DNA from: a virus
Lineage: Duplodnaviria; Heunggongvirae; Uroviricota; Caudoviricetes
IMG/VR virus record: IMGVR_UViG_3300032320_002688
Location: 1-64,000 of that record
Length of the DNA: 64,000 nt
Reading direction: 5' to 3' (one strand)
The notes beneath the pieces were generated by a model. That model ran no database searches. It saw only the letters and a list, made by a program, of their open reading frames with translations, and was not told where the DNA came from. Numbering within the stretch: position 1 is the stretch's first letter; each line of letters begins with the position of its first letter. Shown piece by piece: positions 5,935 through 25,600 of the stretch. The position numbers and the translations under genes are program-made.

Positions 5935-6879
5935 TTACTTTAAATTTAAAAGTGCATTACTACCTGATCCTAATACTGTAGTTGGGACATCGCCTTTCCA
6001 TTTTTGCACCTTGATATATTCAATGTACATTGGGGTTAGGAATTGTTGTTCTTTTCTTACTGCCTCTGCTCTACCAGCAGCAGCAATTACAGCTTGAGCA
6101 CTATCACCTTTAGCACGTGCAATTTTTTCTTGTGCCTCAGCTTGAGCAACTAATGTTCTCTGAATAGCGGCTTGTGCTTCTTGAACTGCTTTAGTTTTCT
6201 CTTCAATTGACTTTGTAATAGCAGGAGGTGGAGCGATATTAGTTCTTAATTGAGATACTGTAAACCACTTACCTACTCTCTTATTACATTCAGTGATGAT
6301 ACTAGCTTCAAATTCAGCTCTGTGGTTAAAAATACTATCAACTGTAAATAAGTTTGCTACGTCATTAACTGATGATACAATAGCATTTCGTAACCAACCT
6401 TGTTCTACTGTTTTAATATCAACCCTTAAGTTCTGGAACATTTGATCCACTGCTGTTGGGTTAAGTGAATAGTTAAAACTAGGTCTAATTGTTACTTGGA
6501 AACCACCTTTAGTAATAATAGTGTTTTCTTCATAATCAATATGTTGTTGGTAAACTGGAAACTCATAATATTGTTGTGTAAATGAGTTATATAATACCCA
6601 ACCACGTTTGTATTCTACTTTAGCCATACCTTTACTATCGCCGATGTTATCTACTAAAATAGCTACTTTACCTGAATCAACTCTCTCCACTTCGTAGGGA
6701 ATAAATACTCCCAAAATAAGAGAAATAACTACTGTTGCTACTGCTTTAATAACACCAAGTGGTTTTAAATGTACATCACCATACTTATCAGGTTCACCTG
6801 TATAGGTAGATAATTTAAAGGCACCGAATACTACTCCGAATACCAAAATCGAAATAATGAATGTTAAAATTCCAATCAT
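5935..6879 (-). CDS. SPFH/band-7 (stomatin/prohibitin/HflKC-like) membrane protein
   Basis: N-terminal TM helix, central band-7-like region, C-terminal Ala/Glu/Gln-rich coiled coil AQAEAQEKIARAKGDSAQAVIAAAGRAEAVRKEQ. Confidence 0.6.
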   Translation of the reverse strand: MIGILTFIISILVFGVVFGAFKLSTYTGEPDKYGDVHLKPLGVIKAVATVVISLILGVFIPYEVERVDSGKVAILVDNIGDSKGMAKVEYKRGWVLYNSFTQQYYEFPVYQQHIDYEENTIITKGGFQVTIRPSFNYSLNPTAVDQMFQNLRVDIKTVEQGWLRNAIVSSVNDVANLFTVDSIFNHRAEFEASIITECNKRVGKWFTVSQLRTNIAPPPAITKSIEEKTKAVQEAQAAIQRTLVAQAEAQEKIARAKGDSAQAVIAAAGRAEAVRKEQQFLTPMYIEYIKVQKWKGDVPTTVLGSGSNALLNLK

Positions 6880-7787: not shown

Positions 7788-8471
7788 TTAAAAATATTTT
7801 GAGAAAAGTCTATAATCTTTTTCGTATATAGCCATGACACGTTGAATTTGTTCTGTTGTTAATGTCTCTTCAACGGTTTTCTTGAGTTCGAGTGGTGTAG
7901 AATTTTCTTTAGGAAATGGTTTAGGGCTCCATTCGCCATAAGTAAATTTCTTAGTTAATTCGGGCCACGCTTCAACTATACCCTTAATGTTATAAAAATG
8001 CAAATAATCAGGTATAATACCATCGGCCGTAGCACAATAAGTCCATTGTGGGTGAAATACATAATCTAAATCGTAAAATTGCCTCCAATAATCTTCAACA
8101 GATAATTCATCCGCGTTATGTTTTACTTTTTGTTCCAGCAATGTAAGTGTTGTTTCTAAATTATTTAGGTACTGATGTGTGCCTGGTCTATTTTCTTCTG
8201 GGTTCCATTCTTGGCGTTCTAATATACCAGTATTCCATTGTAGATACCACCATGCTGAAACAAAACGTTCAACTGGTTCTCTAACTATAGCCATGCAATA
8301 ATGAGTACGAGTAAAATCGTCTCCATTCCACAATATGTCTTTAAGTAATCTGTGGTCATGAACTCTATATTGTCTTCCATTTGGCCACTCATAAACTAAT
8401 GCGGCGTGAATTGATTCTGAGGCGTTTTTAGGAATGGCTAATGCGAATGCATCACAATGATCAAATCTCAT
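7788..8471 (-). CDS. sulfotransferase-family protein
   Basis: IPKNASESI (5'-PSB-like) and VREPVERFVSAWWY (3'-PB motif RxPxxRxxS). Confidence 0.6.
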   Translation of the reverse strand: MRFDHCDAFALAIPKNASESIHAALVYEWPNGRQYRVHDHRLLKDILWNGDDFTRTHYCMAIVREPVERFVSAWWYLQWNTGILERQEWNPEENRPGTHQYLNNLETTLTLLEQKVKHNADELSVEDYWRQFYDLDYVFHPQWTYCATADGIIPDYLHFYNIKGIVEAWPELTKKFTYGEWSPKPFPKENSTPLELKKTVEETLTTEQIQRVMAIYEKDYRLFSKYF

Positions 8472-8686
8472 TATTTATTTTGTTTTAGTCCGTATTTAAT
8501 CCACTTATACCAAATACGTTCATGAATGTAATATTGGATTGGTTTATAGACTAATTCAGCAACACCAAATGCTGCTCCAACTTTTATAGATCCACTTATT
8601 AACCACATTAATCCAAAACCGATTATTGTGCTTATTATTCTGTAACTAATTGTTTTAGCTATATGTCGTTTTCTTTCTACTATCAT
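8471..8686 (-). CDS. small membrane protein
   Basis: 71 aa, two hydrophobic helices. Confidence 0.4.
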   Translation of the reverse strand: MIVERKRHIAKTISYRIISTIIGFGLMWLISGSIKVGAAFGVAELVYKPIQYYIHERIWYKWIKYGLKQNK

Positions 8687-8901
8687 TTTATTATACAGAT
8701 TTTATTCTTCCACTCAATCATATTAGCGTTACAAGACATGTGCCACTTCTCACCTACACCTTCAATCATATCTTTTGTAGTAAATGAAGGGCAGAATATT
8801 CTTACCTCAGAAGCATGATGTTCTACTCCATCAATAAGAACTCTCCATTGCAATTCATCTTCTGGTTTAGCATCTGTTTTATATCTTAATTTTACTATCA
8901 T
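8683..8901 (-). CDS. hypothetical protein
   Basis: 72-aa ORF with 4-nt overlaps on both sides. Confidence 0.4.
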   Translation of the reverse strand: MIVKLRYKTDAKPEDELQWRVLIDGVEHHASEVRIFCPSFTTKDMIEGVGEKWHMSCNANMIEWKNKICIIK

Positions 8902-9296
8902 AGTTTACCCTCTTCTCTCATTTGCTCTCTAATTTTAGTAGCTGATATTTCTTTTACTTCAGTTGGTGGTTCATGTTCAATAATATCGTATCCAACACCA
9001 CGTCCAAAATTAACTGAATCAATATCAGGTATAATCATTACTCTAACTCTACCTTCATCTATAAGATCAGCTAGTTCTTTATGTAAATTAGACATTACTT
9101 CAATAGAGTACCATGGATTTTTTTCATCGGGTTCTATATCGCGAATACAGATTAATACGTTTTTGTCTTCATTTAATCGTTGATCTATAAGCCAACGATG
9201 TCCTGGATGCCAGGGTTGCCAGCGACCAATAAACATTGAGTATTGTTTACCCTCAATCTTTAACTTGGGATCTGCTGTTGCGTGGTAAATTGCCAT
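8898..9296 (-). CDS. HxGH nucleotidyltransferase (cytidylyl/adenylyltransferase superfamily)
   Basis: FIGRWQPWHPGHRWL (HxGH) and C-terminal ISATKIRE (ISxT-IR motif). Confidence 0.6.
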   Translation of the reverse strand: MAIYHATADPKLKIEGKQYSMFIGRWQPWHPGHRWLIDQRLNEDKNVLICIRDIEPDEKNPWYSIEVMSNLHKELADLIDEGRVRVMIIPDIDSVNFGRGVGYDIIEHEPPTEVKEISATKIREQMREEGKL

Positions 9297-9750
9297 AACT
9301 AGATAATTGTGTTAATAGTTTGTAGTAACAATCTGTTAGTGTCTCGGTAGTGTCCATATCAATATAATTAGAAACAGGAGGTTCATAATCAGATACGAAA
9401 TAAGTTTCACGTCCTCTTTCCACAGAAGTATGGACATAAATTTCAACAAGATTGTTTTGCATTTCAATTTTAAATTCATCTCTAAGATCTTTATACGGAG
9501 CCACTAGAGCAACTACCACATGACAACCTTGGTAGTGGAGGAATTTAGCTATGTCTTGAGCACGCTTGATATTTTCAACTCTTCCCTCTTTTCCGTAATT
9601 AACATTCTTGAAAATATCTCTTAATTGGTCGCCATCAATAAACGCTGTTTTAACGTCTTGAGTTTGTAAATAACCGAGTAATTCTTTACCTAAAGTTGTT
9701 TTACCATGACCTGGTTGACCAGTAAACCAATATATCATACTTTTATTCAT
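9253..9750 (-). CDS. cysC: adenylylsulfate (APS) kinase
   Basis: MIYWFTGQPGHGKTT, FIDGDQLRDIF, RVENIKRAQDIAKF...VVVALVAPYKDLRDE align with CysC WFTGLSGSGKST / LDGDNVRHGL / RKENIRRVGEVA; start probably at an internal Met (track ORF extends to 9792). Confidence 0.75.
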   Translation of the reverse strand: MNKSMIYWFTGQPGHGKTTLGKELLGYLQTQDVKTAFIDGDQLRDIFKNVNYGKEGRVENIKRAQDIAKFLHYQGCHVVVALVAPYKDLRDEFKIEMQNNLVEIYVHTSVERGRETYFVSDYEPPVSNYIDMDTTETLTDCYYKLLTQLSSYGNLPRNSRSQVKD

Positions 9751-10123
9751 TTGAAGATATAGTTTTATTACAACCATATCTTTGTTTAACATCTTTTAAA
9801 TAAGCTATATCTATTTTTTTATAGCCTGTTTCTTCTTTTTCCAACCAATAACTACATTGTTTAACATATCGAATATAGTGTTCTAATTGTTCCATCACCT
9901 GTTTAGGGCGAGGATGTTTAATATTAAACTTATATTCTGCTAATAAACATGGTTGAAGAGAATTAAGGAGATCAGTAATCTCCTTTTTTCTCAATTCTTT
10001 AATGTCTACTTTGTTTCCAAAAACTGCTTCTAAATAAGTGGGGTCAAAATTCTTCTCCTTAAGCTTGTCTGATTTGTCAAGCTTGTTGAATAATTTCTTC
10101 GTTATATCGTTTATGTGATTCAA
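9743..10123 (-). CDS. hypothetical protein
   Basis: 126-aa ORF. Confidence 0.45.
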   Translation of the reverse strand: MNHINDITKKLFNKLDKSDKLKEKNFDPTYLEAVFGNKVDIKELRKKEITDLLNSLQPCLLAEYKFNIKHPRPKQVMEQLEHYIRYVKQCSYWLEKEETGYKKIDIAYLKDVKQRYGCNKTISSNE

Positions 10124-12139: not shown

Positions 12140-12952
12140 CTAAGCTGCTACGAATTGTTCAGCAATTTCCCACAATTGGCCGTTCAAAGCCATATCTTGT
12201 TGGAAGTTTTTAATTGGTCTTGCTTTACGCAATTTACCTTCTTCATTAACATATGTAAATGAACCACCTACAATTTTCTCTTGAACGCGGTTAAATACTT
12301 TCCATAATGTATTACCACTATCTTCGTTACGTTCAATAGCAAGTAACTCTTCAAGTTCAATACCTGTAACTTTAGCACCTCCGAAACGAGCATCAATTGC
12401 TTGTTGAGCAAATGCTTTCATTTCGTTTTCAGTCATTGTTTTAGTAATAAACATATTCATACGCTCAACAATTGAAGGTAAACCATCTACGAATTGCTTA
12501 ATATTGGTTTGTAATTGGTCAAATGAATAACCCATATGACGAATATTAAACGAACCAAAATCATGAGATTTAATTACTAATCCATTAGAACATACTAAAC
12601 GGAAAATACCAGCTTCAAACTTAAATGATGATTTTCCATCATGGCTATTTGTAAGCAATACTTGAGGATACATTGTACCATCATCACCATTGATTTCGAT
12701 ACTTGGATTAAAGAATTTAATCAGGTGTTTTTGGAAACCCGAATTTTTACGGCTGCGAACCATTGTCGCTTGACCTACTTTCCAACCTAACGCATCCATA
12801 TCGTCAATAATTTTTGACGTTGGGATAAACGTATAATTTTCTGATACTGCGTTAGACGCTTTGGTCTGATACGCTACTGGGCAAATTGCCTTAATTTCAT
12901 TACGCTCCATTCCTTGGAGATTCATCACTGAGGTTTGATTTCTGTTGTTCAT
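12140..12952 (-). CDS. DUF932-like phage/plasmid protein
   Basis: LLTNSHDGKSSFKFEAGIFRLVCSNGL resembles the DUF932 nSHDGSS core; recalled, not searched. Confidence 0.45.
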   Translation of the reverse strand: MNNRNQTSVMNLQGMERNEIKAICPVAYQTKASNAVSENYTFIPTSKIIDDMDALGWKVGQATMVRSRKNSGFQKHLIKFFNPSIEINGDDGTMYPQVLLTNSHDGKSSFKFEAGIFRLVCSNGLVIKSHDFGSFNIRHMGYSFDQLQTNIKQFVDGLPSIVERMNMFITKTMTENEMKAFAQQAIDARFGGAKVTGIELEELLAIERNEDSGNTLWKVFNRVQEKIVGGSFTYVNEEGKLRKARPIKNFQQDMALNGQLWEIAEQFVAA

Positions 12953-13089: not shown

Positions 13090-14034
13090 TTATGCATATC
13101 CATATGTAATCATGTCATCTCTGTACACATCTTCAATAAGACCACGGTGATCTTCGAGTATTGATCCGAACTGTTCATGAATTTTAATTTTTTCTTCATT
13201 ATAACTCTTAATAAATGAGTCATATGTTGGATATTTAGCTTGAAATTCTAGGTCTGGATTTAAACCTGGTTGTATGAATTGTTTTAATTCCCATTCATGT
13301 TCGTAAGGCATAGTTTTAATAGAATCCATATTACTTTTCTCAATAAAAATAGTTAAGGGAGAAGGATCTAGATTAGGAAAGGCATTTTTAGTAACATCTA
13401 TTCCTCCCCATTTACTTAATTCATCTTTAAAATCATCCATCCATACATCCATTGTTTCAAAAGGTAAAATTCTTAAAGTATATGGACGTGGGGTTTTTAG
13501 GGATAAAAAATTAACTTGAGGCCATGCATGAATAGGTATGCTACATAAATTAACATTATCCCATCCTTTAGATTTAATAATATGTAAATTGGTAATAAGT
13601 AAGTGGAGTTGTTCTTCACTACTATGTCTATCATTTACAAACCAAGAATCAGTATAAAAACTTTGATAAGGATTTCTGGAAACAGGAGTTATTTGTGGGC
13701 GTTTAAATCTTTTGTGAAGTAAAGTTTCATAGGCAAATGATTTAAATCGATCAAATGGATTTCTAACCATAGTAAAGAAAAAATAATCATGAAAATCAGG
13801 AATATGCTTATAAATACTTACTAAGGGTTCATGTCTGTTTGTTGAAAACGAAACATCACCATTTAATTTCTGCTTTGCTGATGGGTGAAGGGGGCATAAA
13901 TCTATGTTCCATAAAAGATTTACATTACTAGAATGAGGAAGGGAAGAAAATGACCTTATTAAAAATTCGGTCATTGAACTAGATCCTGCTTTAGGAACAT
14001 CTATGAATACAGTTTTTATTGCAGAAATAATCAT
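13090..14034 (-). CDS. sulfotransferase-family protein
   Basis: IDVPKAGSSSM (PAPS 5'-phosphosulfate-binding-like PKxGSS) and MVRNPFDRFKSFAYE (RxPxxRxxS 3'-PB motif). Confidence 0.65.
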   Translation of the reverse strand: MIISAIKTVFIDVPKAGSSSMTEFLIRSFSSLPHSSNVNLLWNIDLCPLHPSAKQKLNGDVSFSTNRHEPLVSIYKHIPDFHDYFFFTMVRNPFDRFKSFAYETLLHKRFKRPQITPVSRNPYQSFYTDSWFVNDRHSSEEQLHLLITNLHIIKSKGWDNVNLCSIPIHAWPQVNFLSLKTPRPYTLRILPFETMDVWMDDFKDELSKWGGIDVTKNAFPNLDPSPLTIFIEKSNMDSIKTMPYEHEWELKQFIQPGLNPDLEFQAKYPTYDSFIKSYNEEKIKIHEQFGSILEDHRGLIEDVYRDDMITYGYA

Positions 14035-16699: not shown

Positions 16700-17488
16700 T
16701 TAACCCTTAAATGCACCTTTGTTTTCAAGATCGGCAACACGTGTTCCATCTGCTTTAGTAAAATATGCTCCGTGTTCCATATGAAATAAAGCGGGTTGAT
16801 AAGCAACAGCTAATTTAAAGTCATTTATTGCTGCTTTCTTTTGAATATTAGTATCACAAAAACATTGATACAACATTGATTCTTCAAATCCCCTAATCCA
16901 ATGCCATACTTTAGAATGTGCTATTTGAAAGTCACCACAGCAGTTAATTAATGAATATTTGTCATTAGGAGTAACTTGAGCTGGAAAATGACGTTCTGGG
17001 ATTGTATTACATAATTCATCTCTTAATTCACGCCATCCATCTTTACCATGTTTGTAAACTAATTCTTTAGGTGCTTCACGTCTTGAAACAGTAACAAATG
17101 ATTCGCTTCCCATTTCATTAATTAATTTATCTAATTCTTCACGTTTAGGAGGTATAATATCAAGGTTAGTTGATACAATAAAATCAGTTGATAAACGTCT
17201 TATACCAATATTTCTGCTTATTGCTTCATTACATTGTTGTGCTGTAGGGTCATTATGTGTTAATATAGAAGCGATGTTTGGAGGTATCATGATATGTTTC
17301 AATTTACCTGTTTGAGGTAATTGATCCTTAATTTCCCAAAAGAACGAACCCGATGGTGAGTTCCAATCGATATAAATTACTTCATCAAATGTATCCAACA
17401 TTGATCTGAAGTGGATAATACCACGTTCAAAATCTTTGTACCCATCATTTCTATTTACTACTACTGCTCCTACTGACATAATATTCAA
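16700..17488 (-). CDS. hypothetical protein (possible glycosyltransferase)
   Basis: 262 aa, located inside the glycan locus. Confidence 0.4.
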   Translation of the reverse strand: MNIMSVGAVVVNRNDGYKDFERGIIHFRSMLDTFDEVIYIDWNSPSGSFFWEIKDQLPQTGKLKHIMIPPNIASILTHNDPTAQQCNEAISRNIGIRRLSTDFIVSTNLDIIPPKREELDKLINEMGSESFVTVSRREAPKELVYKHGKDGWRELRDELCNTIPERHFPAQVTPNDKYSLINCCGDFQIAHSKVWHWIRGFEESMLYQCFCDTNIQKKAAINDFKLAVAYQPALFHMEHGAYFTKADGTRVADLENKGAFKG

Positions 17489-18332
17489 TTGTTTTTCTTA
17501 ATCCATCTTCCAATGGTGTAAATTGGAAATGTGTTAAACATGTGTTAATCATTTTTTTCGATATCGAACCTACAAATTGATTAGTATCAAACTTAATACT
17601 ATTAAAGTCATAACCAACTATATCACAAATGGTTTGAGCATAATCTCTAATTGAGTAATCTTGTCCTGAAGACAAGTTACATATTTGTGGAGTCCAAGTT
17701 AATGCTTGTTTTATTATTTTAACAGCGTCATCAATATAAATTAATTCACGTCGTTGGTATCCGTCACCCCATAAAACAACCTCACCACCATTTTGTTTTG
17801 CATCAACTATTTTTCTAATTAAATCAAATATAAAATGTCTATCATCTAATTCATAATTGGGTCCATATAATGTAGAAGGAATAAGGTAGGTATATTGCAT
17901 ACCATATTCGTCATTCATTGCCCTACAACCAATTAATAAATTACGCTTAATGTTACCATATACTTCGTATCCAGGTTCAGCTTCACCTTTCAAATAATTA
18001 AATTCTGTTTTTTCAACATTAGCATCGTAACCACAAGATGAACCAAATGTAATTACTTTAGCATTTGGGAAACAATTTTTCCATCCTTGAAAAAAAGCGT
18101 TATTAATGTCTGTATTAATTAGGAATTGTTCGCCTGAATGGTTCTGACAATAACCACCAGCCGCCGTTTTAACGGCCATATGGATTATATAATCATAATT
18201 TTGTCCGCAATCGAACAATTTACCTTTCATATCGTGGCTATTAGCTACCTCAATATCATATTCAGATTGTAAGGCAGGTACTAATGCTCTACCTACAAAC
18301 CCCGTTCCACCTGTAATTAATATCTTTTTCAT
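17451..18332 (-). CDS. NAD(P)-dependent sugar-nucleotide epimerase/reductase (SDR family)
   Basis: KILITGGTGFVGRAL Rossmann motif; GDP-fucose synthase / dTDP-sugar reductase-like. Confidence 0.65.
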   Translation of the reverse strand: MKKILITGGTGFVGRALVPALQSEYDIEVANSHDMKGKLFDCGQNYDYIIHMAVKTAAGGYCQNHSGEQFLINTDINNAFFQGWKNCFPNAKVITFGSSCGYDANVEKTEFNYLKGEAEPGYEVYGNIKRNLLIGCRAMNDEYGMQYTYLIPSTLYGPNYELDDRHFIFDLIRKIVDAKQNGGEVVLWGDGYQRRELIYIDDAVKIIKQALTWTPQICNLSSGQDYSIRDYAQTICDIVGYDFNSIKFDTNQFVGSISKKMINTCLTHFQFTPLEDGLRKTIEYYVSRSSSSK

Positions 18333-18333
18333 A

Positions 18334-18972
18334 TTAGTCTGTAAGTCGTCCCATTTTTAAATCCACATCACATTTTACACCACACAAATGGGATTCGTTT
18401 CTATAAAATATAGTCATGCCGTTATTACCTTTTTGTGTTTTATGTTTCCACTCTGGATTAACTGCTAACCAGTCATCAACTGCTTTTGATTGATCAGGAA
18501 AACAATCCCAAGGATCCATATCATGTGTTATTATAACACCTGTTGGTGACAATAAAGTAGCATAATTATCAAATTCAAATTTAGTATCTACATAATTATG
18601 GCTTGTATCAGTAAAGAATATATCAACTTTACCTACTAATTCACTTAATTGTGGAAATACTGCTTCAGTAGTACCTTGTTTGAATGTCCAAAAAGGTAAT
18701 TGTTCTCTAAGTTGTTGAAAATTGTGTTTTGACTCTGGTAAGTTTTGGTAGTCAGCCATATCCACATCTACTAGTTTGGCACCTACTTTATAAGCGCCTA
18801 AGGCAAAAGCAGCTCCTGAATGTCCATCTCTAATACCAGCATGAACTATTACTTTTGGTTTAATTGCTTCTACTAACTCTAGTAAGTAAGGTAAATGACC
18901 TGCTATGTCACTTTTACTTCTACTTTTTTTCTCATTAAAGAGATCTTCTAATTGTTCTAAAATATTTTCCAT
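18334..18972 (-). CDS. class I SAM methyltransferase-like (Methyltransf_24/CmcI-like)
   Basis: VIVHAGIRDGHSGAAFALG...DIFFTDTSHNY pattern. Confidence 0.45.
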   Translation of the reverse strand: MENILEQLEDLFNEKKSRSKSDIAGHLPYLLELVEAIKPKVIVHAGIRDGHSGAAFALGAYKVGAKLVDVDMADYQNLPESKHNFQQLREQLPFWTFKQGTTEAVFPQLSELVGKVDIFFTDTSHNYVDTKFEFDNYATLLSPTGVIITHDMDPWDCFPDQSKAVDDWLAVNPEWKHKTQKGNNGMTIFYRNESHLCGVKCDVDLKMGRLTD

Positions 18973-18973
18973 G

Positions 18974-19639
18974 TTATTTAAAAATTACTTTGAATGCTGC
19001 TGGATGATATCGAGTGTCTGAGAACCCTAAGTATTCAACATCCTCAATTTTATCTTCCATTTGGTTTAAAAATTCTTTAAATGCTTTATATTCATGATGT
19101 TCCCAATCAGGATAATTAAAAAATTCATCGAATACTAAAACACATTGTTTACTAAAATATGGTTTCATATTATCAAACACACATTTAGTAGATGAATACA
19201 AGTCAGCATCTAAGTGAAGTAAACTAACTCGTTCAATTTTAGTCTCATTAAGAAACTTAGGTAATGTTTCATCAAACCAACCTATTACTAATTCCATTTT
19301 TTCATTTGGTTCAAATGGAGGAACACCCTGGGTATCAAATTTACCTTTTTCATTATGTTCATTCCATTCTTCAGGCAAACCCTCGAATGAATCAAACCCG
19401 TACACTTTATCTTTTAATGTAGTAAGAAATTCTAATGTTTTGCCACTATATACCCCAAACTCAAACCAATCACCATCAGTATCAGCTTCTTTAGCTGCGC
19501 TCATTAAACAATTAGTATGAGCAACTAAATATCTCATTTTAGGTTTAATATCCTGTTCAAATTCTAAAGGTGTAGCACCTAATATTTTATCTCCTAATGT
19601 CATCTTACAAGTTTGTAAAGTTATTATTTGACGCATCAA
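18974..19639 (-). CDS. TylF/MycF-family sugar O-methyltransferase
   Basis: SLLHLDADLYSSTKCVF matches the TylF LHLDxDLYxST motif. Confidence 0.6.
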   Translation of the reverse strand: MMRQIITLQTCKMTLGDKILGATPLEFEQDIKPKMRYLVAHTNCLMSAAKEADTDGDWFEFGVYSGKTLEFLTTLKDKVYGFDSFEGLPEEWNEHNEKGKFDTQGVPPFEPNEKMELVIGWFDETLPKFLNETKIERVSLLHLDADLYSSTKCVFDNMKPYFSKQCVLVFDEFFNYPDWEHHEYKAFKEFLNQMEDKIEDVEYLGFSDTRYHPAAFKVIFK

Positions 19640-20576
19640 TTATTGGATACGCTTTAAGTAATTCTTGTATTCCGTCTTCTAGTGAATATGATGGTTTCCA
19701 ACCCAATGCTTCTAATTTATCGTTAGAAACTATATAGTTGCGTTTATCTGGGTCTTCATTTATTTCAGACTCAGCTATATAAAAATCAGGAATGAATTGT
19801 TTAATCGTTTCACATAATTCTTTCTTACTGATGTTAGCTGTACTTAAACCAACGTTATATGGTTGGCCTTTCATTGTATTAAAGTTATCAATAGCAAATA
19901 AAAATGCTCCAACTACGTCTCTGATATGAATGAAGTTACGTTTGAAGTGTGATTCGAATAGTACGATGTATTTTTCTTTAAATGCTTTATATGTAAAGTC
20001 ATTTACTAATAAATCTAATCTCATTCTTGGAGACATACCAAACACAGTAGCTAATCTAAGTGTTACAGCGTTACCTCTTTGTAATAATGCTTCTTCAGCT
20101 TTAACTTTAGTAACACCATACAATGAAATAGGTTTCAAAGGTGTTTCTTCAGTACAATAAAGATCAGATTGACCAATACCATAACCACTATTAGTTGTGG
20201 GGTAAATGATTTTTTGATCATCTCTGGTATTACGAGCTAACCATTCAAGTGCTGTTTGGTTTGTATCTTGAGTTAACTCAGGATATTTTTTACAAGCAGG
20301 CATTCCTACTATACAAGCTAAAGGAATAATGATATCTGCTTCTTTAACTAATGGCTCCATCATTTTCCAATCACGAACATCACCTTTGATAAATTTAAAG
20401 TTATCTAAATGACAATATTGAGTTAATGATGTATTTTTATACATCAAATTATCTACAACAGTAACGTCGTAATTTCTGTTTATTAGTGAATCTACTAATA
20501 CGGAGCCAATGTAACCTGCTCCTCCGGTTACTAATACTTTATCCATGTTGTTTAATTTGTTTAATAACATCATCAA
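19605..20576 (-). CDS. NAD-dependent nucleotide-sugar epimerase/dehydratase (SDR)
   Basis: KVLVTGGAGYIGSVLVDSL; catalytic YxxxK region. Confidence 0.7.
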   Translation of the reverse strand: MMMLLNKLNNMDKVLVTGGAGYIGSVLVDSLINRNYDVTVVDNLMYKNTSLTQYCHLDNFKFIKGDVRDWKMMEPLVKEADIIIPLACIVGMPACKKYPELTQDTNQTALEWLARNTRDDQKIIYPTTNSGYGIGQSDLYCTEETPLKPISLYGVTKVKAEEALLQRGNAVTLRLATVFGMSPRMRLDLLVNDFTYKAFKEKYIVLFESHFKRNFIHIRDVVGAFLFAIDNFNTMKGQPYNVGLSTANISKKELCETIKQFIPDFYIAESEINEDPDKRNYIVSNDKLEALGWKPSYSLEDGIQELLKAYPIIDASNNNFTNL

Positions 20577-21141
20577 CGCTAGGTAAAAATGCTTCTACAG
20601 TGTCTTTTAATTCTAATAATTTTGCTGATTTATCTCTTTCAGATAAAATTGGTTTATCAATAGGCCAAGTAATATCTAAAACCGGATCATCCCATCTAAC
20701 AGTAAATTGATTTTCAGAGCCTTTATAGTATTCAGATTGTTTATAACTGAAGATACCAAATTCACTCATTACTAAATGTCCATTAGCACACCCAGCAGGA
20801 ATTAATACTTGACTTCTGTTTTTGTCGTTAATTGGGATTTGAATCCATTTCAAGTAACTTGGAGATTCAGGTCTCATATCGACAACGGTAGCTAACATAC
20901 TACCATACAAGCATTGAACTAATTTCCATGTGTGTTTATCACCATGTAATCCTCTCAATGTGTGTCTAACTGATGTACTAACGTCATCTTGTACCCATCT
21001 AATAGGGGCACCTGCGTTGTACTTAAATACTTCATAAAACTGTTGGTTAAATGTTTCTATATACTCCCCTCTATAGTCATAGTGTTTGAATGGGGTAATA
21101 ATAGCTACATCTTTAATTACATCACTAAATTTATATTCCAT
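20539..21141 (-). CDS. dTDP-4-dehydrorhamnose 3,5-epimerase-like (RmlC cupin)
   Basis: RGLHGDKHTWKLVQCLYGSMLATVVDMRPESPSY...IPAGCANGH matches RmlC conserved blocks. Confidence 0.65.
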   Translation of the reverse strand: MEYKFSDVIKDVAIITPFKHYDYRGEYIETFNQQFYEVFKYNAGAPIRWVQDDVSTSVRHTLRGLHGDKHTWKLVQCLYGSMLATVVDMRPESPSYLKWIQIPINDKNRSQVLIPAGCANGHLVMSEFGIFSYKQSEYYKGSENQFTVRWDDPVLDITWPIDKPILSERDKSAKLLELKDTVEAFLPSVDDVIKQIKQHG

Positions 21142-21896
21142 TATAATTCATTTGGGTTAACAATCGTTGTTCCTTTTCTTTGTACTACATAAGTAGCGCA
21201 TTTGTTAGCATAGTTAATTGCTTTAACAATATCACCTGTTTGGCAAAACTTAACAGCTAAACCAGCTAAAAATGTATCTCCAGCTCCAGTATTATCCTTA
21301 ACGTCTACTTTTTGAACAGGATAAACTTTACCATCATGAATACATCCTTGACTACTTATAGTTACAATAGTTTTATCTAATATTTTTTGTGATACATGTC
21401 CTCTACATTTAGCAAATTCACTTTCGTTTATTTTAATGTAGCTAATTTTATCAGCAAATATATTATTGATTACTTTTTTAGTATCTAAAAATGTTATGTT
21501 AGAATTTTCAGCTATGTAAGTGATATCATCTTCTTCTAAAAATCCTTTACAATAATCACTTATAACAACAGCATCAAATGCTCTAAAATTTATTTTTTCT
21601 AAATCAGTAACTCGAGCTATATGTTCCTCTCCAGTATCAACTCTAACAAACATATGGTTTGTTTTAGAGTCAACATACCTGGTTTTATGTATTTGTTCTT
21701 TATTAGTTAAAGTAGTTACTTCTGCTCCTAATGCCTCAATGTTTCTAACTACATTACCAGCCATACCTGGATATGTAATTGTTTCTGCGGGTACCATTAC
21801 TGGTACTGGAGCATCAGGACACATTCTAAGACATTTACCATAAACGTAAACGTCCATACAACTATCTCCAACTACTAATATTTTAGGTTTTTTCAT
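21141..21896 (-). CDS. PfkB-family sugar kinase, HldE/RfaE domain I-like
   Basis: ILVVGDSCMDVY N-terminus; C-terminal NTGAGDTF anion-hole motif. Confidence 0.7.
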   Translation of the reverse strand: MKKPKILVVGDSCMDVYVYGKCLRMCPDAPVPVMVPAETITYPGMAGNVVRNIEALGAEVTTLTNKEQIHKTRYVDSKTNHMFVRVDTGEEHIARVTDLEKINFRAFDAVVISDYCKGFLEEDDITYIAENSNITFLDTKKVINNIFADKISYIKINESEFAKCRGHVSQKILDKTIVTISSQGCIHDGKVYPVQKVDVKDNTGAGDTFLAGLAVKFCQTGDIVKAINYANKCATYVVQRKGTTIVNPNEL

Positions 21897-21897
21897 A

Positions 21898-22299
21898 TTA
21901 CCAACTAATTTCCCAATCTTTAAAATCGGCTGCTAAACAATCTATTTTATAATCTTTTCTACCACCAACTACTTCTTGAATTTTGTTTTTAGCGGTGTTT
22001 CTAATTCCATTTAAACCATGAGTTAATTCTAGGTTATTACCATCTTTAATTCCCTTACGATAATTTGATTCGTTATGCCAAATGTGTAAGTTCATTTGTG
22101 ATAATACTACAATCGCTCTGATTGTCTCGGCTGTTACTTTTCCATTTTGTTCATCCAACAAGATTTGAATGTCATGTACTATGTCGTTAATTTCTTGAGC
22201 GTATTCATCTTTATGATCAGCAATGAATACCTCTTTGAGTTGACTAATAGATAATCTGTCTACTAGTTCTGATAATGTGGGTAAATATTTTCTTTCCAT
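21898..22299 (-). CDS. hypothetical protein
   Basis: 133-aa ORF. Confidence 0.45.
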   Translation of the reverse strand: MERKYLPTLSELVDRLSISQLKEVFIADHKDEYAQEINDIVHDIQILLDEQNGKVTAETIRAIVVLSQMNLHIWHNESNYRKGIKDGNNLELTHGLNGIRNTAKNKIQEVVGGRKDYKIDCLAADFKDWEISW

Positions 22300-22301
22300 T
22301 C

Positions 22302-23213
22302 TTATAAGTTATTTAATTCTATTAGGGTATCCAAATATTTCTCCAATCGTTTGAAGAAAAATCCTTGTTCTTTAACTAATTCATAGTTGTTCTCTATATA
22401 AGGTAATCTACTATAGTAGTCTTCAGGAGTTAGTTTATTAATAATGTCTACTAATTCATTTTCATCATTAAAATATATAACACCACGTTCGTCGTACCAA
22501 TCACCTATATTAGGAGCACCCCAATAAATTGGTAATGTTTTAGTACCAAAACAATCTAATATTTTATCTGTAAAATAATGTTTGTGTTTTGAATTTTCAA
22601 CGGCTACATGAAACATCTTATGTGTGTTCCATACTTGTTTTTTACCATCACCCTCAATTGGGTTGCCGTTTGGTCCTATTTTTGTTTCGAAGTATCCAGG
22701 TCGTTGTCCTCTTTCTTGGTCAAAGTCATCTAATACTCTCCACCAATTGTTAGGTATCTGTATTTGATCACCTTTAGCTAATATGCGTTGACGTAATTTA
22801 TGTCCGTCTAACATTTCGAGAATACCACTTAAGAAAGTAACCCCAAACTCACGTTCAGGGTTAGTTTCAAATGTGTTTATATAGTTAATATCTAAGTTAG
22901 TTTCACCATGTAAAAATAAACTATAATTAGGAGTATCACCTAATATTTCTTCATCCCAACTTAATACAGCGGAAAATGCGTTATAATTATTTTTTACAAA
23001 TGAATGTAAACCAAATAATTCATTTGGTTCATTCAGTACAATCAAATTAACATCACTATATTCACTCGCATCTCGAGGAACATAATCATTAAATATTGTT
23101 ATTGATTTATTCTTATATTTTTCTAAACAACCTAATTCTCTTTCGTAACGTTCTATAGGTAGATAACTACTATATAGTTTCATAAAACTTATTTTGTTTT
23201 TCTTGTCTATCAA
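22302..23213 (-). CDS. GT10-like (alpha-1,3-fucosyltransferase-motif) glycosyltransferase
   Basis: FHVAVENSKHKHYFTDKILDCF matches the FucT motif FxLxFENSxxxxYxTEK. Confidence 0.5.
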   Translation of the reverse strand: MIDKKNKISFMKLYSSYLPIERYERELGCLEKYKNKSITIFNDYVPRDASEYSDVNLIVLNEPNELFGLHSFVKNNYNAFSAVLSWDEEILGDTPNYSLFLHGETNLDINYINTFETNPEREFGVTFLSGILEMLDGHKLRQRILAKGDQIQIPNNWWRVLDDFDQERGQRPGYFETKIGPNGNPIEGDGKKQVWNTHKMFHVAVENSKHKHYFTDKILDCFGTKTLPIYWGAPNIGDWYDERGVIYFNDENELVDIINKLTPEDYYSRLPYIENNYELVKEQGFFFKRLEKYLDTLIELNNL

Positions 23214-23784
23214 TATCTTTAATATGAGTTAAAGACCATTCTTCTAAGGCCGGTAATTGAGCTGATGTTTTAAATCCGGTTAGGCGTTCATGTACTTTAT
23301 TAATCCATTGAATTTCGGGTTTATTTGCACATATACGTGTTTGATAATCGGGCCAGTTAATCCAACCATTATCATCTACAAACCATCTCCATTTATCAAT
23401 GTGAGCTTGAGTTAAACCATTTACTTTATTAACTCGAGGAACTGCTATTAAATCAACTATACCTTTATTTAATTCTAAAAATTCATGGATGTTTTTAGAA
23501 AAATAATAATTTAATGTTTCATCAGCATCAATAAAGAAAATCCAATCTTTAGTACATAAACTTTTAAGATTATTTTTAAATGTAGCAAAGTCTTTATTTA
23601 ATGGATGGAAATAATTCATTAACTTGTACTTATTAACTACCTCTTTTACTTCATCAGTAGCAGTAATATCCATCTGTACCACTATTTCATCTTCCTCTCT
23701 AATATTTTTTACAAGTTGCTGTAAGAGTTTATCTAATTCCTCATGTTCGTTATGAACAGTAATTGCAAAACTAATAGTAGCCAT
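23170..23784 (-). CDS. GT2-family glycosyltransferase
   Basis: ISFAITVHNE...FFIDADETL (DxD). Confidence 0.5.
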   Translation of the reverse strand: MATISFAITVHNEHEELDKLLQQLVKNIREEDEIVVQMDITATDEVKEVVNKYKLMNYFHPLNKDFATFKNNLKSLCTKDWIFFIDADETLNYYFSKNIHEFLELNKGIVDLIAVPRVNKVNGLTQAHIDKWRWFVDDNGWINWPDYQTRICANKPEIQWINKVHERLTGFKTSAQLPALEEWSLTHIKDIDRQEKQNKFYETI

Positions 23785-23788
23785 AATG

Positions 23789-24250
23789 TTAATTTTGATC
23801 GTTAAATACTCCGATGTATTCTAAAGCATCCATAAAATTAGTTCTTTCAAACAATTTAAGAGACTTCATATCGGTTTTGTGGGTATAATATTCTTCTGTT
23901 CCTGGTTTTTTGAATTTTGCTTTTTCCTCTTCTTCTACTTCAGTCATCAACACACCAGCCCATTTCCATTCTTCCTTGTTTTTACCATAAGCAAAAACAG
24001 TACCTTGGTTTTCAATGTTAACTGATTGAGGGTACCAAACACGTCCTTCACTATCAGTATGTTTTATGTCAACATAAAGATAAGGTAATGATTGATCATA
24101 TTCTTCAAAGTTAAATTCACCTTCTCTAATCAAATCAGATGTTTGATATCCACATCCGAAACAAGCGTAATTTGAATGAAACTCATTAATTGGGGTTTGA
24201 TAGCAAGCATCGCTACCGCATTTGGGACATATTACTAAATTGTCTTCCAT
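23789..24250 (-). CDS. zinc-ribbon protein
   Basis: CPKCGSDACY...CFGCGYQT. Confidence 0.45.
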   Translation of the reverse strand: MEDNLVICPKCGSDACYQTPINEFHSNYACFGCGYQTSDLIREGEFNFEEYDQSLPYLYVDIKHTDSEGRVWYPQSVNIENQGTVFAYGKNKEEWKWAGVLMTEVEEEEKAKFKKPGTEEYYTHKTDMKSLKLFERTNFMDALEYIGVFNDQN

Positions 24251-24304
24251 ACTATATCTAAATTATAAGTGTTATTTGAATAGGTGAATATTACTCCACC
24301 TGTA

Positions 24305-25597
24305 TTATTTTGGTAATTCAATTTTATCTATTTTAGGTAACTTTAATTCTACTTTCTTAGGAACAAATGCTTCAAATATTGTATCTAATTTTTCAGTCAT
24401 TTTTTCTAATGAGAAGTTTTGTTTATTTCTAAATGCTAATTGTTTTGCTTTAGGAAGATATTTTTTATAATTTTCAAATACATCTTTCATTAACCCAATA
24501 GCATATCCTTGATCTACATTAAACCAACCACCTTGTTCTAGTATAAAGTCATTTACTGCTGATTTATCAACTGCTTTTACTTCACCTGGAATTAAATTAG
24601 CAAATTCGGGATCTAAGAAATCTAAATGACCTGACCAACCTGATGCTAATAATGGTTTTTGTGTTAGTGTAAATTCTAATAATGGGCGACCAAATCCTTC
24701 ACCTTTAGTAAATGATAACATTGCTTTTACTTTAGGGTGGTTATATAAGAAGTTCATTTGAGAATCTTCTAATTCACCATGTAATAAATAAATGTTAGGT
24801 AAAGTAGACGTTTTAACTTCACTTTTAATAGCATCTATTTTTTTCAATACTTCCTCTCTATCCATAATAGAAGCAGGACCGTGAGATACTTTTAATATTA
24901 ATCCAGGAGCATTCTTTTTATTTTTAAATGCTTCTAAGAACATTCTAATCATTAATGCTACATTCTTTCTATCTTCACCAAATCCTCCAGGTAACCAATG
25001 ACCTACAAATAAGAAATTAAAATCAGATTCAATTTCATCTAATGCTTCTACTAATTCATCAGCAGGTATTTCATCATCGCTCATTGGAAAGTATTTCTCT
25101 AAATCTGCACCCTCAAATAATACTTGAATTGGTTTTTCTAATACTAATGTACCTTCAGGAGCATTTGTTGTTTTATTTCTTCTTTCAAATTTAGATTCTT
25201 CAAATACTTTTTTAGCATGTTCAGATGATACTAAAGTTAAATTCATTTTATTAATACCTTCAATCCACGTGGGAGCACATATTGTAGTTTCAATACCTGC
25301 TGTAATACCAATATTGTATTTTCCTACTGGTTGAAATTCGTTAGGTACTGTAATTTGAATCCACACATCTGGTTGTGATTGTAATTGTGGTGCTGGGTAG
25401 TAGTTGTCTAATATTTGTTTTTCTTCTGCTATATCTGCATTTAAAGCCCCATAAGGTGTATTACCCCATCGCTGTGGCATGATTTTAATATCATATTTAC
25501 CTGTTTTAAATAGAGCTTTTACTATGTCTCTTGAACGTGCGCCATATCCACTGAATGTATCAATTGGACAGCTAACTATAACTAATGGTTTTGCCAT
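24305..25597 (-). CDS. GT4 (group 1) glycosyltransferase
   Basis: SFTKGEGFGRPLLEFTLTQKPLLAS C-terminal EX7E-type motif. Confidence 0.65.
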   Translation of the reverse strand: MAKPLVIVSCPIDTFSGYGARSRDIVKALFKTGKYDIKIMPQRWGNTPYGALNADIAEEKQILDNYYPAPQLQSQPDVWIQITVPNEFQPVGKYNIGITAGIETTICAPTWIEGINKMNLTLVSSEHAKKVFEESKFERRNKTTNAPEGTLVLEKPIQVLFEGADLEKYFPMSDDEIPADELVEALDEIESDFNFLFVGHWLPGGFGEDRKNVALMIRMFLEAFKNKKNAPGLILKVSHGPASIMDREEVLKKIDAIKSEVKTSTLPNIYLLHGELEDSQMNFLYNHPKVKAMLSFTKGEGFGRPLLEFTLTQKPLLASGWSGHLDFLDPEFANLIPGEVKAVDKSAVNDFILEQGGWFNVDQGYAIGLMKDVFENYKKYLPKAKQLAFRNKQNFSLEKMTEKLDTIFEAFVPKKVELKLPKIDKIELPK

Positions 25598-25600
25598 ATT

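Follow-up and report, generated by a model that had tools for sequence, protein, structure and literature searches.

All sulfate assimilation and all biological sulfation begin with the activation of sulfate, for which, to our knowledge, only two enzyme types are known, namely Sat and CysDN. CysD, which has the PP-loop ATP pyrophosphatase fold, depends on the GTPase CysN. Fungal ATP sulfurylases bear a non-catalytic APS-kinase-like regulatory domain. In Campylobacter jejuni, the cytidylyltransferase Cj1416 and the APS-kinase homologue Cj1415 make 3'-phospho-cytidine diphosphoramidate for capsule modification, in a pathway that requires a glutamine kinase and an amidohydrolase as well. Giant viruses carry a canonical SAT/APS-kinase fusion, together with a sulfotransferase, in their virion-glycosylation clusters (PMC10117803). 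Among phages, those with the NMN adenylyltransferase (NMNAT) NadM all carry NadV as well, and NADAR genes have been reported beside NadM (PMC9503650).

The system described here is encoded in a 64-kb stretch of phage DNA (the whole stretch analysed, hereafter the window), where the gene for a very small nucleotidyltransferase (hereafter NTase) overlaps that of an APS kinase. The NTase is a member of a family of minimal HIGH-motif enzymes (about 110-160 aa), uncharacterised so far, from the NadM/NMNAT lineage. Judging by gene context, we consider it likely, with good confidence, that this family catalyses the conversion of ATP and sulfate to APS and PPi, which would make it a third, analogous type of ATP sulfurylase. 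A literature search covering papers available without subscription returned no description of the family.

The NTase gene and its operon

The genes that matter for the argument are the following.

7788..8471, minus strand: sulfotransferase (Sulfotransfer_2; PF03567, E 1.3e-10), last gene of the operon
8471..8686, minus strand: DUF2061 protein, a small two-helix membrane protein (PF09834, E 1.5e-16)
8683..8901, minus strand: 72-aa ORF between the NTase and DUF2061 genes, with a 4-nt overlap at each end
8898..9296, minus strand: NTase, minimal HIGH-motif nucleotidyltransferase of 132 aa, proposed ATP:sulfate adenylyltransferase (APS-forming)
9253..9296, minus strand: 44-nt overlap of the APS kinase 3' end with the NTase 5' end, read in the sequence
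9253..9792, minus strand: APS kinase, short-lid phage type (PF01583, E 8e-22)
13090..14034, minus strand: second sulfotransferase-like gene (PF03567, E 8.6e-6, N-terminal part only; phrog_3347, 1.8e-6)

The NTase ORF runs from the ATG at 9296 to the stop at 8898, and its ATG falls 44 nt within the APS kinase gene, whose stop codon is 9253-9255; the initial annotation, which had described a 132-aa nucleotidyltransferase with HPGH and ISATKIRE motifs beginning inside the 3' end of the kinase gene, was thus accurate on both counts. The overlap is consistent with translational coupling. An alternative in-frame ATG, Met21 (9236), serves as the start in some 112-aa database gene calls. We rejected it, and ATG 9296 is the more likely start, because a comparison of 74 related viral loci shows Met21 to be conserved simply as part of the first beta-strand, and most of these loci keep an upstream ATG whose overlap with the kinase stop is 1, 4 or 8-44 nt. 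The gene is anything but a chance ORF: it matches 7,996 database proteins at E <= 1e-3 and 1,109 cluster representatives at 50% identity, and relatives are encoded on 364 viral contigs.

The kinase probably starts at Met19 (ATG 9738), as do its homologues beginning MIYWFTGQPG. It matches the NCBIfam adenylyl-sulfate kinase models at E-values down to 8e-24, yet under their cut-off, and all 22 of its PDB sequence matches are APS kinases (best 5e-15). The P-loop GQPGHGKT and the motifs DGDQLR, ENIKR and VAPY can be read in the sequence, and the canonical RDxKGLYKKAR lid is shortened. Fused counterparts of this kinase occur in P0175 and P0130, and a single PHROG family, phrog_10255, covers both window genes, APS kinase and NTase.

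Downstream, the genes are tightly packed: the NTase stop overlaps the start of the 72-aa ORF, and that ORF overlaps the DUF2061 gene, by 4 nt each, and the DUF2061 and sulfotransferase genes share 1 nt. The 72-aa ORF had no Pfam, NCBIfam or PHROG match, and 6 of 80 viral loci have a homologue in the corresponding place. For the DUF2061 protein, a role as membrane anchor is one possibility. The sulfotransferase at 7788-8471, which has a weak PHROG match to galactose-3-O-sulfotransferase and holds the same place at the operon end in the two closest relatives (L006 and L007), presumably consumes PAPS; the second sulfotransferase-like gene lies about 3.3 kb upstream of the cassette. When the 3-kb cassette was compared by blastn with 50,697 phage records, no match emerged. 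The phage itself bears only a distant resemblance to T4, and its DNA polymerase B is closest to that of Microcystis phage Mel-JY01, at 36%.

Motifs, fold and relation to known nucleotidyltransferases

The NTase carries a HIGH-type motif, GRWQPWHPGH, at residues 24-33 (HPGH at 30-33), after the first beta-strand, and ISATKIRE at residues 117-124, within which ISATKIR (117-123) represents the ISxTxxR, or KMSKS-equivalent, motif. In a 40-sequence family alignment, H30, G32 and H33 of the former and S118, T120 and R123 of the latter are nearly invariant; family-wide, HxGH, ISxTxxR and three arginines vary little or not at all. The fold is Rossmann-like alpha/beta, as in NMNAT, PPAT, GCT and ATP sulfurylase. 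The term phosphodiesterase fold, used in the initial annotation, should give way to HIGH-signature (cytidylyltransferase-like) Rossmann-type nucleotidyltransferase fold. The same annotation had set HPGH apart from the HxxH of ATP sulfurylases; HPGH is itself of the HxxH/HxGH type and therefore no mark that separates the NTase from those enzymes. Against Pfam PF01467 the NTase scores 17.1 bits (E 0.0066), below the 21-bit gathering score, while relatives pass it (P0146 with 34.9 bits, the L093 protein with 28.6 bits), so that its own score reflects sensitivity and does not exclude membership. The top single-sequence PDB matches, lectins or agglutinins of the OAA family, were discarded as chance composition, covering only a Trp/Pro/His-rich PWHPGxxW stretch of about 22 residues.

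By HMM, profile and structure alike, the best matches of the NTase are NadM-type NMN adenylyltransferases, and many family members are labelled as such by JGI. The resemblance is, however, partial. The best score against the NadM NCBIfam models is 32.4 bits, where cut-offs range from 127 to 409, and covers the N-terminal 70-75 residues only; the profile alignment to MJ0541 (1f9a) spans residues 5-75 and 110-155 and skips about 76-109; and with Foldseek the well-superposed core shared with NMNATs amounts to just 77-80 columns. From archaeal NMNAT structures we take the skipped MJ0541 segment to be the part that contacts NMN, presumably comprising, after strand 3, a helix with Asn and Trp contacting the nicotinamide, plus an SGN loop. 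Relative to NadM-type enzymes (MJ0541 / PDB 1f9a, M. thermoautotrophicum), the NTase is 35-50 residues shorter, has roughly 9 residues (DSVNFGRGV) in place of that segment, possesses the family-specific invariants IRD and GRxVGY, and is found next to sulfur enzymes rather than NadV or Nudix genes. The NTase protein contains no Nudix domain, and no NadV or Nudix family is among the 14 largest neighbour clusters of either the 80 viral or the 80 cellular loci, as judged by eye and from partial Pfam annotation, with the window covering 64 kb of a larger genome. A clear best match to another nucleotidyltransferase with its substrate-binding residues conserved had been named as grounds for abandoning the sulfurylase idea; the best match is indeed to NMNATs, but the acceptor-binding part (MJ0541 about 76-109) has no counterpart. 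We thus read the NTase as a relative of NMNATs that is probably not one itself, a reading that relies on our assumed role for the NMN segment. There was likewise no family-level HMM match to HldC/RfaE domain II or TagD-type enzymes.

Specific homology to Sat was also considered and rejected, as hhalign of the family alignment against the catalytic domain of yeast Met3 (residues 191-390) gave a probability of 7%. The NTase has no Pfam match to PF01747 (Sat ATP sulfurylase), and the 60 sequences listed to E 1.5 in a PDB profile search include NMNAT and PPAT and no sulfurylase. A weak PF01747 match (E about 2e-4) appears in one member of each of two fusion sets.

Gene fusions and sulfur-metabolism contexts

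The association with APS kinase extends across the family, both as fusion and as synteny. The Pfam APS_kinase domain is present in 22 of 26 N-terminally extended representatives (best E 9.5e-69) and, in the opposite order, in 8 of 18 C-terminally extended ones (8e-56); DUF2061 is borne by 2 of those 18. Searching with an 8-sequence sub-alignment of the family yielded loci in 80 species genomes, 41 with an NTase/APS kinase fusion and 15 with an adjacent APS kinase. An APS kinase gene lies directly upstream of the NTase in 76 of 80 IMG/VR loci, where kinase identity to the window kinase is mostly 33-53% and reaches 83% in the two closest only. DUF2061 is similarly recurrent: it follows the NTase in 64/80 viral loci, stands beside it in 36/80 metagenome loci, and is fused to the NTase in two family representatives, P0195 among them, and to APS kinase in L129.

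The wider neighbourhoods point to sulfur metabolism. A Sulfotransfer_3 or Sulfotransfer_2 gene is found in 34 of the 80 viral loci, usually immediately upstream of APS kinase; Bacteroidota chromosomes show the order APS kinase - NTase - ... - CysQ-like Inositol_P - Wzx - Sulfotransfer_1; and among 129 cellular neighbour genes the Pfam family seen most often is that of sulfotransferases. Marine Nitrospirales-like chromosomes carry a different operon, Rrf2 - sulfite reductase - CysH - NTase, whose NTases are 72-85% identical to those in APS kinase/CysQ-like/sulfotransferase contexts and 46-49% identical to the window NTase. CysH of this operon has the CC...CxxC signature, which we take to mark APS reductases, and would therefore use APS directly. 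The NTase occurs in sulfite reductase/APS reductase operons without any APS kinase, and APS is the sole metabolite common to these and to the sulfotransferase/PAPS contexts.

Canonical sulfurylases are scarce at these loci. Searches with phmmer (queries yeast Met3, CysD and CysN) found no Sat, CysD or CysN across the 64 kb of the window, nor at any of the 80 viral or 80 metagenome loci, and Sat/CysDN are lacking in 239 of the 240 loci collected (viral, genome and metagenome), the exception being one cellular locus (L003/L086). In one Acidobacteriota MAG, an NTase-APS kinase fusion adjoins canonical cysD and cysN, and the NTase would be redundant there because of them. The initial annotation had suggested either a minimal ATP sulfurylase whose gene is coupled to that of the APS kinase, or an enzyme acting on some other phospho-substrate. 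The former thus has strong contextual backing, independent of the window, in the fusions, the synteny, the sulfotransferase, CysQ-like and APS reductase contexts, and the lack of Sat or CysDN nearby.

Other contexts differ. Two (P0184 and P0162) are phage contigs with no annotated sulfur genes, and 19 loci with the label Dadabacteria or Thermodesulfobacteriota have a solitary NTase gene amid housekeeping genes, with no sulfur gene within 8 kb. A distant clade in Xanthomonadaceae phages and Alphaproteobacteria, 32-39% identical and with a truncated kinase and an adjacent NADAR gene, may have a different function.

Proposed reaction, alternative explanations and comparison with known systems

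Under the model we favor, sulfate would attack the ATP alpha-phosphate in the NTase active site. By motif logic, His30 and His33 of HxGH would stabilise the transition state, and Ser118, Thr120 and Arg123 of ISxTxxR would hold the beta- and gamma-phosphates, which leave as PPi. The NMN-binding subdomain would be replaced by family invariants absent from NMNATs, Arg52 (of IRD) and Gly98-Arg99-x-Val-Gly-Tyr103, and Arg25, Arg52 and the Gly98-Tyr103 residues may form a small anion pocket. APS formation is thermodynamically unfavourable and its product must therefore be removed, a step that would fall to the APS kinase encoded by the overlapping (44 nt) gene, to which APS might be channelled for conversion to PAPS; elsewhere, the kinase is fused to the NTase in many organisms, and in a few an APS reductase would take its place. 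PAPS would then feed the phage sulfotransferases at 7788-8471 and 13090-14034, which may sulfate a glycan made by the large sugar-modification island of the phage, with the DUF2061 protein as a putative membrane-bound partner in the sulfation module. In short, the reaction is a known one but the enzyme family would be new, and it probably feeds a phage PAPS and glycan-sulfation module. In its broadest form we hold the model a shade less firmly, although still as probable: a convergent third class of ATP sulfurylase, of 110-160 residues, NadM-derived, without a PUA domain or GTPase partner, and widespread; coupled to APS kinase, often with DUF2061, or to APS reductase; and distributed over marine T4-like phages (where phage-directed sulfation of glycans would draw on the PAPS it provides), Bacteroidota, Marinimicrobia, Planctomycetota, Omnitrophota, Nitrospirales-like bacteria, CPR bacteria and some archaea.

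Alternatively, the NTase might adenylylate another small anion or phospho-compound, with the kinase phosphorylating the 3'-OH of the product to give a PAPS-like donor of a non-sulfate group. A Pfam APS_kinase match is no proof of APS specificity, the lid of the window kinase is atypically short, the NTase has no detectable Sat signature, and in Dadabacteria-type loci a class-I glutamine amidotransferase gene lies directly upstream of the NTase, which recalls the amidohydrolase step in Campylobacter. However, the cassette adjoins PAPS-type sulfotransferases (Sulfotransfer_1, _2 and _3), a CysQ-like phosphatase and sulfatases, the sulfite reductase/APS reductase operon makes sense only with APS as the product, and glutamine kinase or phosphoramidate-transferase genes are not recurrent among the neighbour clusters, so we regard this explanation as improbable. 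Still less probable, in our view, is that the NTase merely assists the APS kinase as a nucleotide-binding (e.g., regulatory, APS-binding) partner, with APS supplied by host CysDN or Sat. The fungal regulatory domain illustrates such recruitment within the sulfate-activation pathway, and the Acidobacteriota locus places cysD and cysN beside an NTase-APS kinase fusion; yet catalytic HxGH, ISxTxxR and the three arginines show next to no variation across the family, the NTase also stands beside APS reductase where there is no APS kinase, and CysDN is missing from 239 of the 240 loci of the viral, genome and metagenome scans.

It is equally doubtful that the NTase serves NAD+ salvage as a genuine NMN adenylyltransferase, with the P-loop kinase acting like the ribosylnicotinamide kinase domain of NadR, despite the NadM-type best matches, the JGI names, the NADAR gene that adjoins a fused homologue in Xylella phage Bacata and the NADAR genes that neighbour NadM in phages (PMC9503650). 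The presumed NMN-binding region of archaeal NMNAT is missing, scores fall far under every NadM equivalog cut-off, and the partner kinase matches APS_kinase, with PDB matches that are all APS kinases and no AAA_28/RNK match. Furthermore, NadV accompanies NadM in every phage that has it (PMC9503650), whereas neither NadV nor Nudix recurs among the neighbour clusters, and the sulfur-gene contexts would go unexplained. Least probable of all appears a sugar-1-phosphate adenylyltransferase resembling HldC or RfaE domain II, which might supply neighbouring glycosyltransferases with ADP-heptose, for example. A PfkB sugar kinase and epimerases are encoded in the window, and related loci contain a recurring 291-aa gene, GT9-like on visual inspection, along with a small HAD phosphatase and, in one case, a large protein with a Glyco_transf_9 domain. 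On the other hand, NCBIfam gives no rfaE-domain-II match, a PfkB gene adjoins the NTase only in Marinimicrobia, where it is on the opposite strand, and at a single viral locus, most loci by far have an adjacent or fused APS kinase, and the sir-cysH operon would have no explanation. Hence, we favor an APS-forming ATP sulfurylase.

If this is correct, the way genomes and metagenomes are scored for sulfate assimilation or activation capacity would change, since organisms or phages counted as lacking sat/cysDN may be competent. Widespread misannotation would also be corrected: its members go under the names NMN or phosphopantetheine adenylyltransferase, so that the family would be miscounted as a NAD-salvage auxiliary gene in viromes and missed in sulfur-cycle gene inventories. 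Many marine phages would carry a self-contained module leading from sulfate through PAPS to a sulfated product, and a very small sulfurylase would be on offer for biocatalytic PAPS regeneration.

Compared with Sat (PF01747; yeast Met3, T. thermophilus Sat), the NTase would catalyse the same reaction, and both have HxxH and ISGTxxR-type motifs and tend toward fusion or operon organisation with APS kinase. The GR(D/G)xxx loop of the NTase recalls the Sat GRDHAG, and more generally its GRWQPxHxGH and GR(G/D/K/N)VGY are similar, although not identical, to QxRNPxHxxH and GRDHAG; the NTase differs in having no PUA-like domain at its N-terminus and neither the QxRNP nor the LLHPxxGxTK motif, at about one third of the Sat size. 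With CysD/CysN it would share the reaction and the pathway partners (CysC, CysH), while the fold is unrelated and no GTPase partner was found here. The Campylobacter pair Cj1416/Cj1415 offers a parallel in that a nucleotidyltransferase and an APS-kinase homologue together provide a 3'-phosphorylated nucleotide donor for glycan decoration; the donor there is a phosphoramidate, whereas the NTase cassette adjoins PAPS-type sulfotransferases. Finally, PAPS synthases (metazoan PAPSS, Sat-CysC such as Aquifex 2gks, and the giant-virus SAT/APS-kinase) likewise couple the two steps of sulfate activation physically, and the NTase/APS kinase fusions, in either order, mirror their architectures with a mini-NTase in place of the sulfurylase module, the window achieving the coupling through overlapping genes instead of fusion.

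The nucleotidyltransferase gene and its operon

The initial annotation proposed that a 132-aa nucleotidyltransferase (NTase) translationally coupled to an APS kinase is a candidate minimal ATP sulfurylase, or else activates a different phospho-substrate. The ORF is present exactly as described, with GRWQPWHPGH at residues 24-33 and ISATKIRE at residues 117-124, and the upstream gene is indeed an APS kinase, matching PF01583 (E 8e-22) and finding APS kinases in 22 of its 22 PDB sequence matches. The NTase was also said to start within the 3' end of the kinase gene, and its ATG at 9296 does sit 44 nt inside that gene, since the kinase stop codon occupies 9253-9255. The relevant window genes are as follows.

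5935-6879, minus strand: SPFH/Band 7 membrane protein (PF01145, E 2e-19), flanking the sulfation region
8471-8686, minus strand: DUF2061 small membrane protein, which travels with the cassette (APS kinase, NTase, DUF2061)
8683-8901, minus strand: 72-aa ORF between the NTase and DUF2061, overlapping each by 4 nt
8898-9296, minus strand: NTase, 132 aa
9253-9792, minus strand: APS kinase
12140-12952, minus strand: DUF932 protein (E 9e-35), flanking the sulfation region
13090-14034: second sulfotransferase-like gene
About 16700-27037 and 31985-33616, minus strand: sugar-modification island
34310-35956, minus strand: GroEL chaperonin (phrog_5725, E 4e-146)

Some database gene calls begin the NTase at an internal ATG, Met21. 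We rejected this start and accepted the overlapping one because Met21 is a conserved first-strand residue across 74 related viral loci, and most of these have an upstream ATG whose overlap with the kinase stop is 1, 4 or 8-44 nt. The true start of the kinase is probably Met19 (ATG 9738), 4 nt past the stop of the upstream ORF. Its canonical lid (RDxKGLYKKARxGxIxxFTG) is mostly missing, with VERGRETYFVSDYEPP in its place, and the P-loop, DGD, ENIKR and APY motifs are retained. The operon continues from the NTase through the 72-aa ORF and DUF2061 to a Sulfotransfer_2 enzyme, with successive overlaps of 4, 4 and 1 nt. A search for a family match to the 72-aa ORF found none; of 80 related viral loci, 6 have a homologue at this position.

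The window belongs to a large, AT-rich, densely coding dsDNA phage with almost every gene on the minus strand, including a family-B DNA polymerase, ribonucleotide reductase, DnaB-like helicase, GroEL, a carbamoyltransferase and glycosyltransferases. The phage is only a distant relative of cultured T4-like phages; the best match of its polymerase is that of Microcystis phage Mel-JY01 (36% identity). The sugar island encodes two NAD-dependent epimerase/dehydratases, RmlC, a PfkB kinase, two TylF-like methyltransferases, a GT10-like enzyme, a GT2, two other glycosyltransferases and a Nol-like carbamoyltransferase, which suggests that the glycan is methylated, carbamoylated and sulfated.

Fold, nearest families and fusions

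The NTase is a HIGH-motif (cytidylyltransferase-like) nucleotidyltransferase. It scores 17.1 bits against Pfam PF01467, just under the 21-bit threshold, and matches the NCBIfam NadM-type NMN adenylyltransferases (NMNATs) N-terminally only, at 32 bits vs. cut-offs of 127-409 bits. An AlphaFold model built with 40 diverse homologues as input is confident (pLDDT 91.5), and Foldseek agrees with the assignment, although only 77-80 columns, the N-terminal ATP-binding two-thirds, superpose well. The family-profile alignment to NMNAT spans residues 5-75 and 110-155 of MJ0541, an archaeal NadM-type enzyme; about nine residues replace the intervening segment, which we take to be the carrier of the Asn, Trp and SGN loop that hold NMN. 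By the initial annotation's own standard, its proposal would fall if NMNAT, PPAT or TagD matched best and the substrate residues were conserved: the best match is an NMNAT, but the substrate residues are not kept. Family invariants missing from NMNATs are Arg52 in IRD and Gly98-Arg99-x-Val-Gly-Tyr103. There is no specific kinship to Sat-type sulfurylases: hhalign against residues 191-390 of yeast Met3 gives a probability of only 7%. The NTase belongs to neither of the two canonical ATP sulfurylase families, Sat and CysD.

The top PDB sequence matches, OAA-family lectins and agglutinins (E down to 2e-6), were rejected as spurious. They stem from a Trp/Pro/His-rich stretch, GRWQPWHPGHRWLI (residues 22-45), which could mislead automated annotation.

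The family is large, with at least 7,996 proteins at E <= 1e-3 among 8,000 candidates examined, and with matches to 1,109 representatives of 50%-identity clusters. Pfam APS_kinase is found in 22 of 26 N-terminally extended representatives (best E 9.5e-69) and, in reverse order, in 8 of 18 C-terminally extended ones (8e-56); DUF2061 is present in 2 of those 18. Curated models in Pfam, NCBIfam and PHROGs give the family only generic or misleading labels, and the available full-text literature searches yielded no description of it. The PHROG phrog_10255, labelled 'kinase', covers both window genes; its counterparts are kinase-NTase fusions of Xylella, Xanthomonas and Stenotrophomonas phages, which GenBank labels 'adenylylsulfate kinase', 'kinase' or hypothetical protein. 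This distant fused clade (Xanthomonadaceae phages and Alphaproteobacteria) may differ in function because its kinase is truncated and a NADAR gene is a neighbor: in Bacata, this gene and one for a 192-aa protein weakly matching Sulfotransfer_4 (E 9e-4) come before the fusion. Loci beyond the window are:

L001:2555-4318 (Xylella phage Bacata) and L002:3590-4321 (Stenotrophomonas phage DLP_6): truncated APS-kinase-like domain plus NTase
L170:2734-8425, with equivalents in L093, L169, L172 and L179-L182: Nitrospirales-type operon
L090-L092, L094-L105, L107, L109 and L110: stand-alone NTases in MAGs labelled Dadabacteria or Thermodesulfobacteriota

Genomic contexts in viruses and cells

Of 80 IMG/VR loci, 76 have an APS kinase gene immediately ahead of the NTase and 64 have DUF2061 downstream of it, even though these kinases are mostly only 33-53% identical to that of the window (83% in the two closest loci only). 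DUF2061 also accompanies 36 of 80 metagenome loci and is sometimes fused to the NTase (P0195) or the kinase (L129:7294-7998). It could belong to a sulfate-activation complex at the membrane. A Sulfotransfer_3 protein (E 8.8e-18) or window-type sulfotransferase occurs in 34 of the 80 viral loci, usually directly upstream of the kinase. A 113-aa HAD phosphatase (weak HAD_PNKP match) lies between NTase and DUF2061 or between kinase and NTase in 12 loci (e.g., L056:8384-8725), or 13 counting one kinase fusion. Other recurrent neighbors are large multidomain glycosyltransferases, an FkbM methyltransferase, a carbamoyltransferase, tail sheath and baseplate genes, and a 291-aa protein, GT9-like by eye, that lacks a Pfam match.

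In 80 species genomes, the NTase is fused to the kinase, in either order, in 41 loci and adjacent to it in 15; the carriers are Bacteroidota, Marinimicrobia, Planctomycetota, Omnitrophota, CPR lineages, Alphaproteobacteria and several archaea. Sulfotransferases are the commonest Pfam family among 129 immediate neighbor genes (five Sulfotransfer_3, two Sulfotransfer_5), alongside CysQ-like Inositol_P, sulfatases, epimerases and glycosyltransferases; the 25 families listed for these genes include no ATP sulfurylase. Marine Bacteroidota chromosomes show the order APS kinase, NTase, DeoC, aldehyde dehydrogenase, CysQ-like phosphatase, Wzx flippase, Sulfotransfer_1.

The most telling context is a second operon type, carried by marine Nitrospirales-like chromosomes (up to 1.6 Mb), whose NTases share 72-85% identity with those of the Bacteroidota and 46-49% with that of the window. 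Its genes run Rrf2 regulator, ferredoxin-type sulfite reductase-TusA fusion, CysH, NTase, Glycos_transf_3, DUF420. The CysH carries a CC...CxxC cluster and a C-terminal ECGLH, presumably the signature of APS rather than PAPS reductases, and therefore would need APS without a kinase. The sulfite reductase-TusA fusion has a weak HEPN-like stretch, and the Glycos_transf_3 gene is TrpD- or AMP-phosphorylase-like.

Among 80 metagenome loci with NTases 71-97% identical to the Nitrospirales-operon NTase, APS kinase is upstream in 67, sulfite reductase and CysH in four, and neither in nine, seven of which lack upstream DNA. Where 900 bp or more of upstream sequence is available, an APS-consuming enzyme gene precedes the NTase in 54 of 56 loci. 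None of the 80 metagenome loci has Sat, CysD or CysN, and neither do the 80 viral loci or the whole window. A canonical sulfurylase is nearby only in an Acidobacteriota MAG (L003/L086:5117-8259), where an NTase-APS kinase fusion divergently adjoins cysD and cysN and has ABC exporter and giant glycosyltransferase-sulfotransferase genes beside it. Finally, 19 Dadabacteria-type loci have a stand-alone NTase that shares 53-56% identity with the corresponding domain of the Acidobacteriota fusion (P0146) and lies amid housekeeping genes resembling Leu/Phe-tRNA protein transferase, an adjoining class-I glutamine amidotransferase, ribosomal protein L31 and HemB, with no sulfur genes within 8 kb.

Proposed function and alternatives

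APS is the sole metabolite common to both pathway types, the APS kinase and the sulfite reductase/CysH operons. Production of APS by the NTase is the most economical interpretation. We consider it quite likely, from sequence and gene context, that the NTase is an ATP sulfurylase. Caveats to this reading are the Acidobacteriota locus with cysD and cysN, the stand-alone NTases of the Dadabacteria-type loci and the distant fused clade. The alternatives are a PAPS-analogue donor pathway like that of Campylobacter Cj1416/Cj1415, a true NMNAT or NadR-like pair, a regulatory partner of the kinase, and an HldC-like sugar-phosphate adenylyltransferase. None of the four accounts for both operon types together, and we therefore rank all of them well below ATP sulfurylase.

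As an ATP sulfurylase, the NTase would convert ATP and sulfate to APS and PPi on a stripped-down NadM scaffold, with HxGH and ISxTxxR acting on ATP and PPi as elsewhere in the superfamily. Deletion of the NMN subdomain would leave a small anion pocket, its walls formed by the Arg and Gly-rich loop particular to this family. The unfavorable equilibrium would be pulled by the coupled APS kinase, with coupling presumably achieved by overlapping genes in the window and elsewhere by fusion to the kinase, or by APS reductase in its stead. The small HAD phosphatase may assist as a pyrophosphatase or PAP phosphatase, the two window sulfotransferases would then use the PAPS, and DUF2061 would be a conserved membrane partner. 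With this function, the NTase family would be a new one catalyzing an already known reaction.

Given the glycan-gene neighbors in viral loci and the window's sugar island, we read the cassette as the part of the phage's glycan-tailoring gene set that is predicted to activate sulfate. There is precedent for such a cassette in giant viruses, which carry a canonical SAT/APS-kinase fusion and a sulfotransferase inside virion-glycosylation clusters (PMC10117803).
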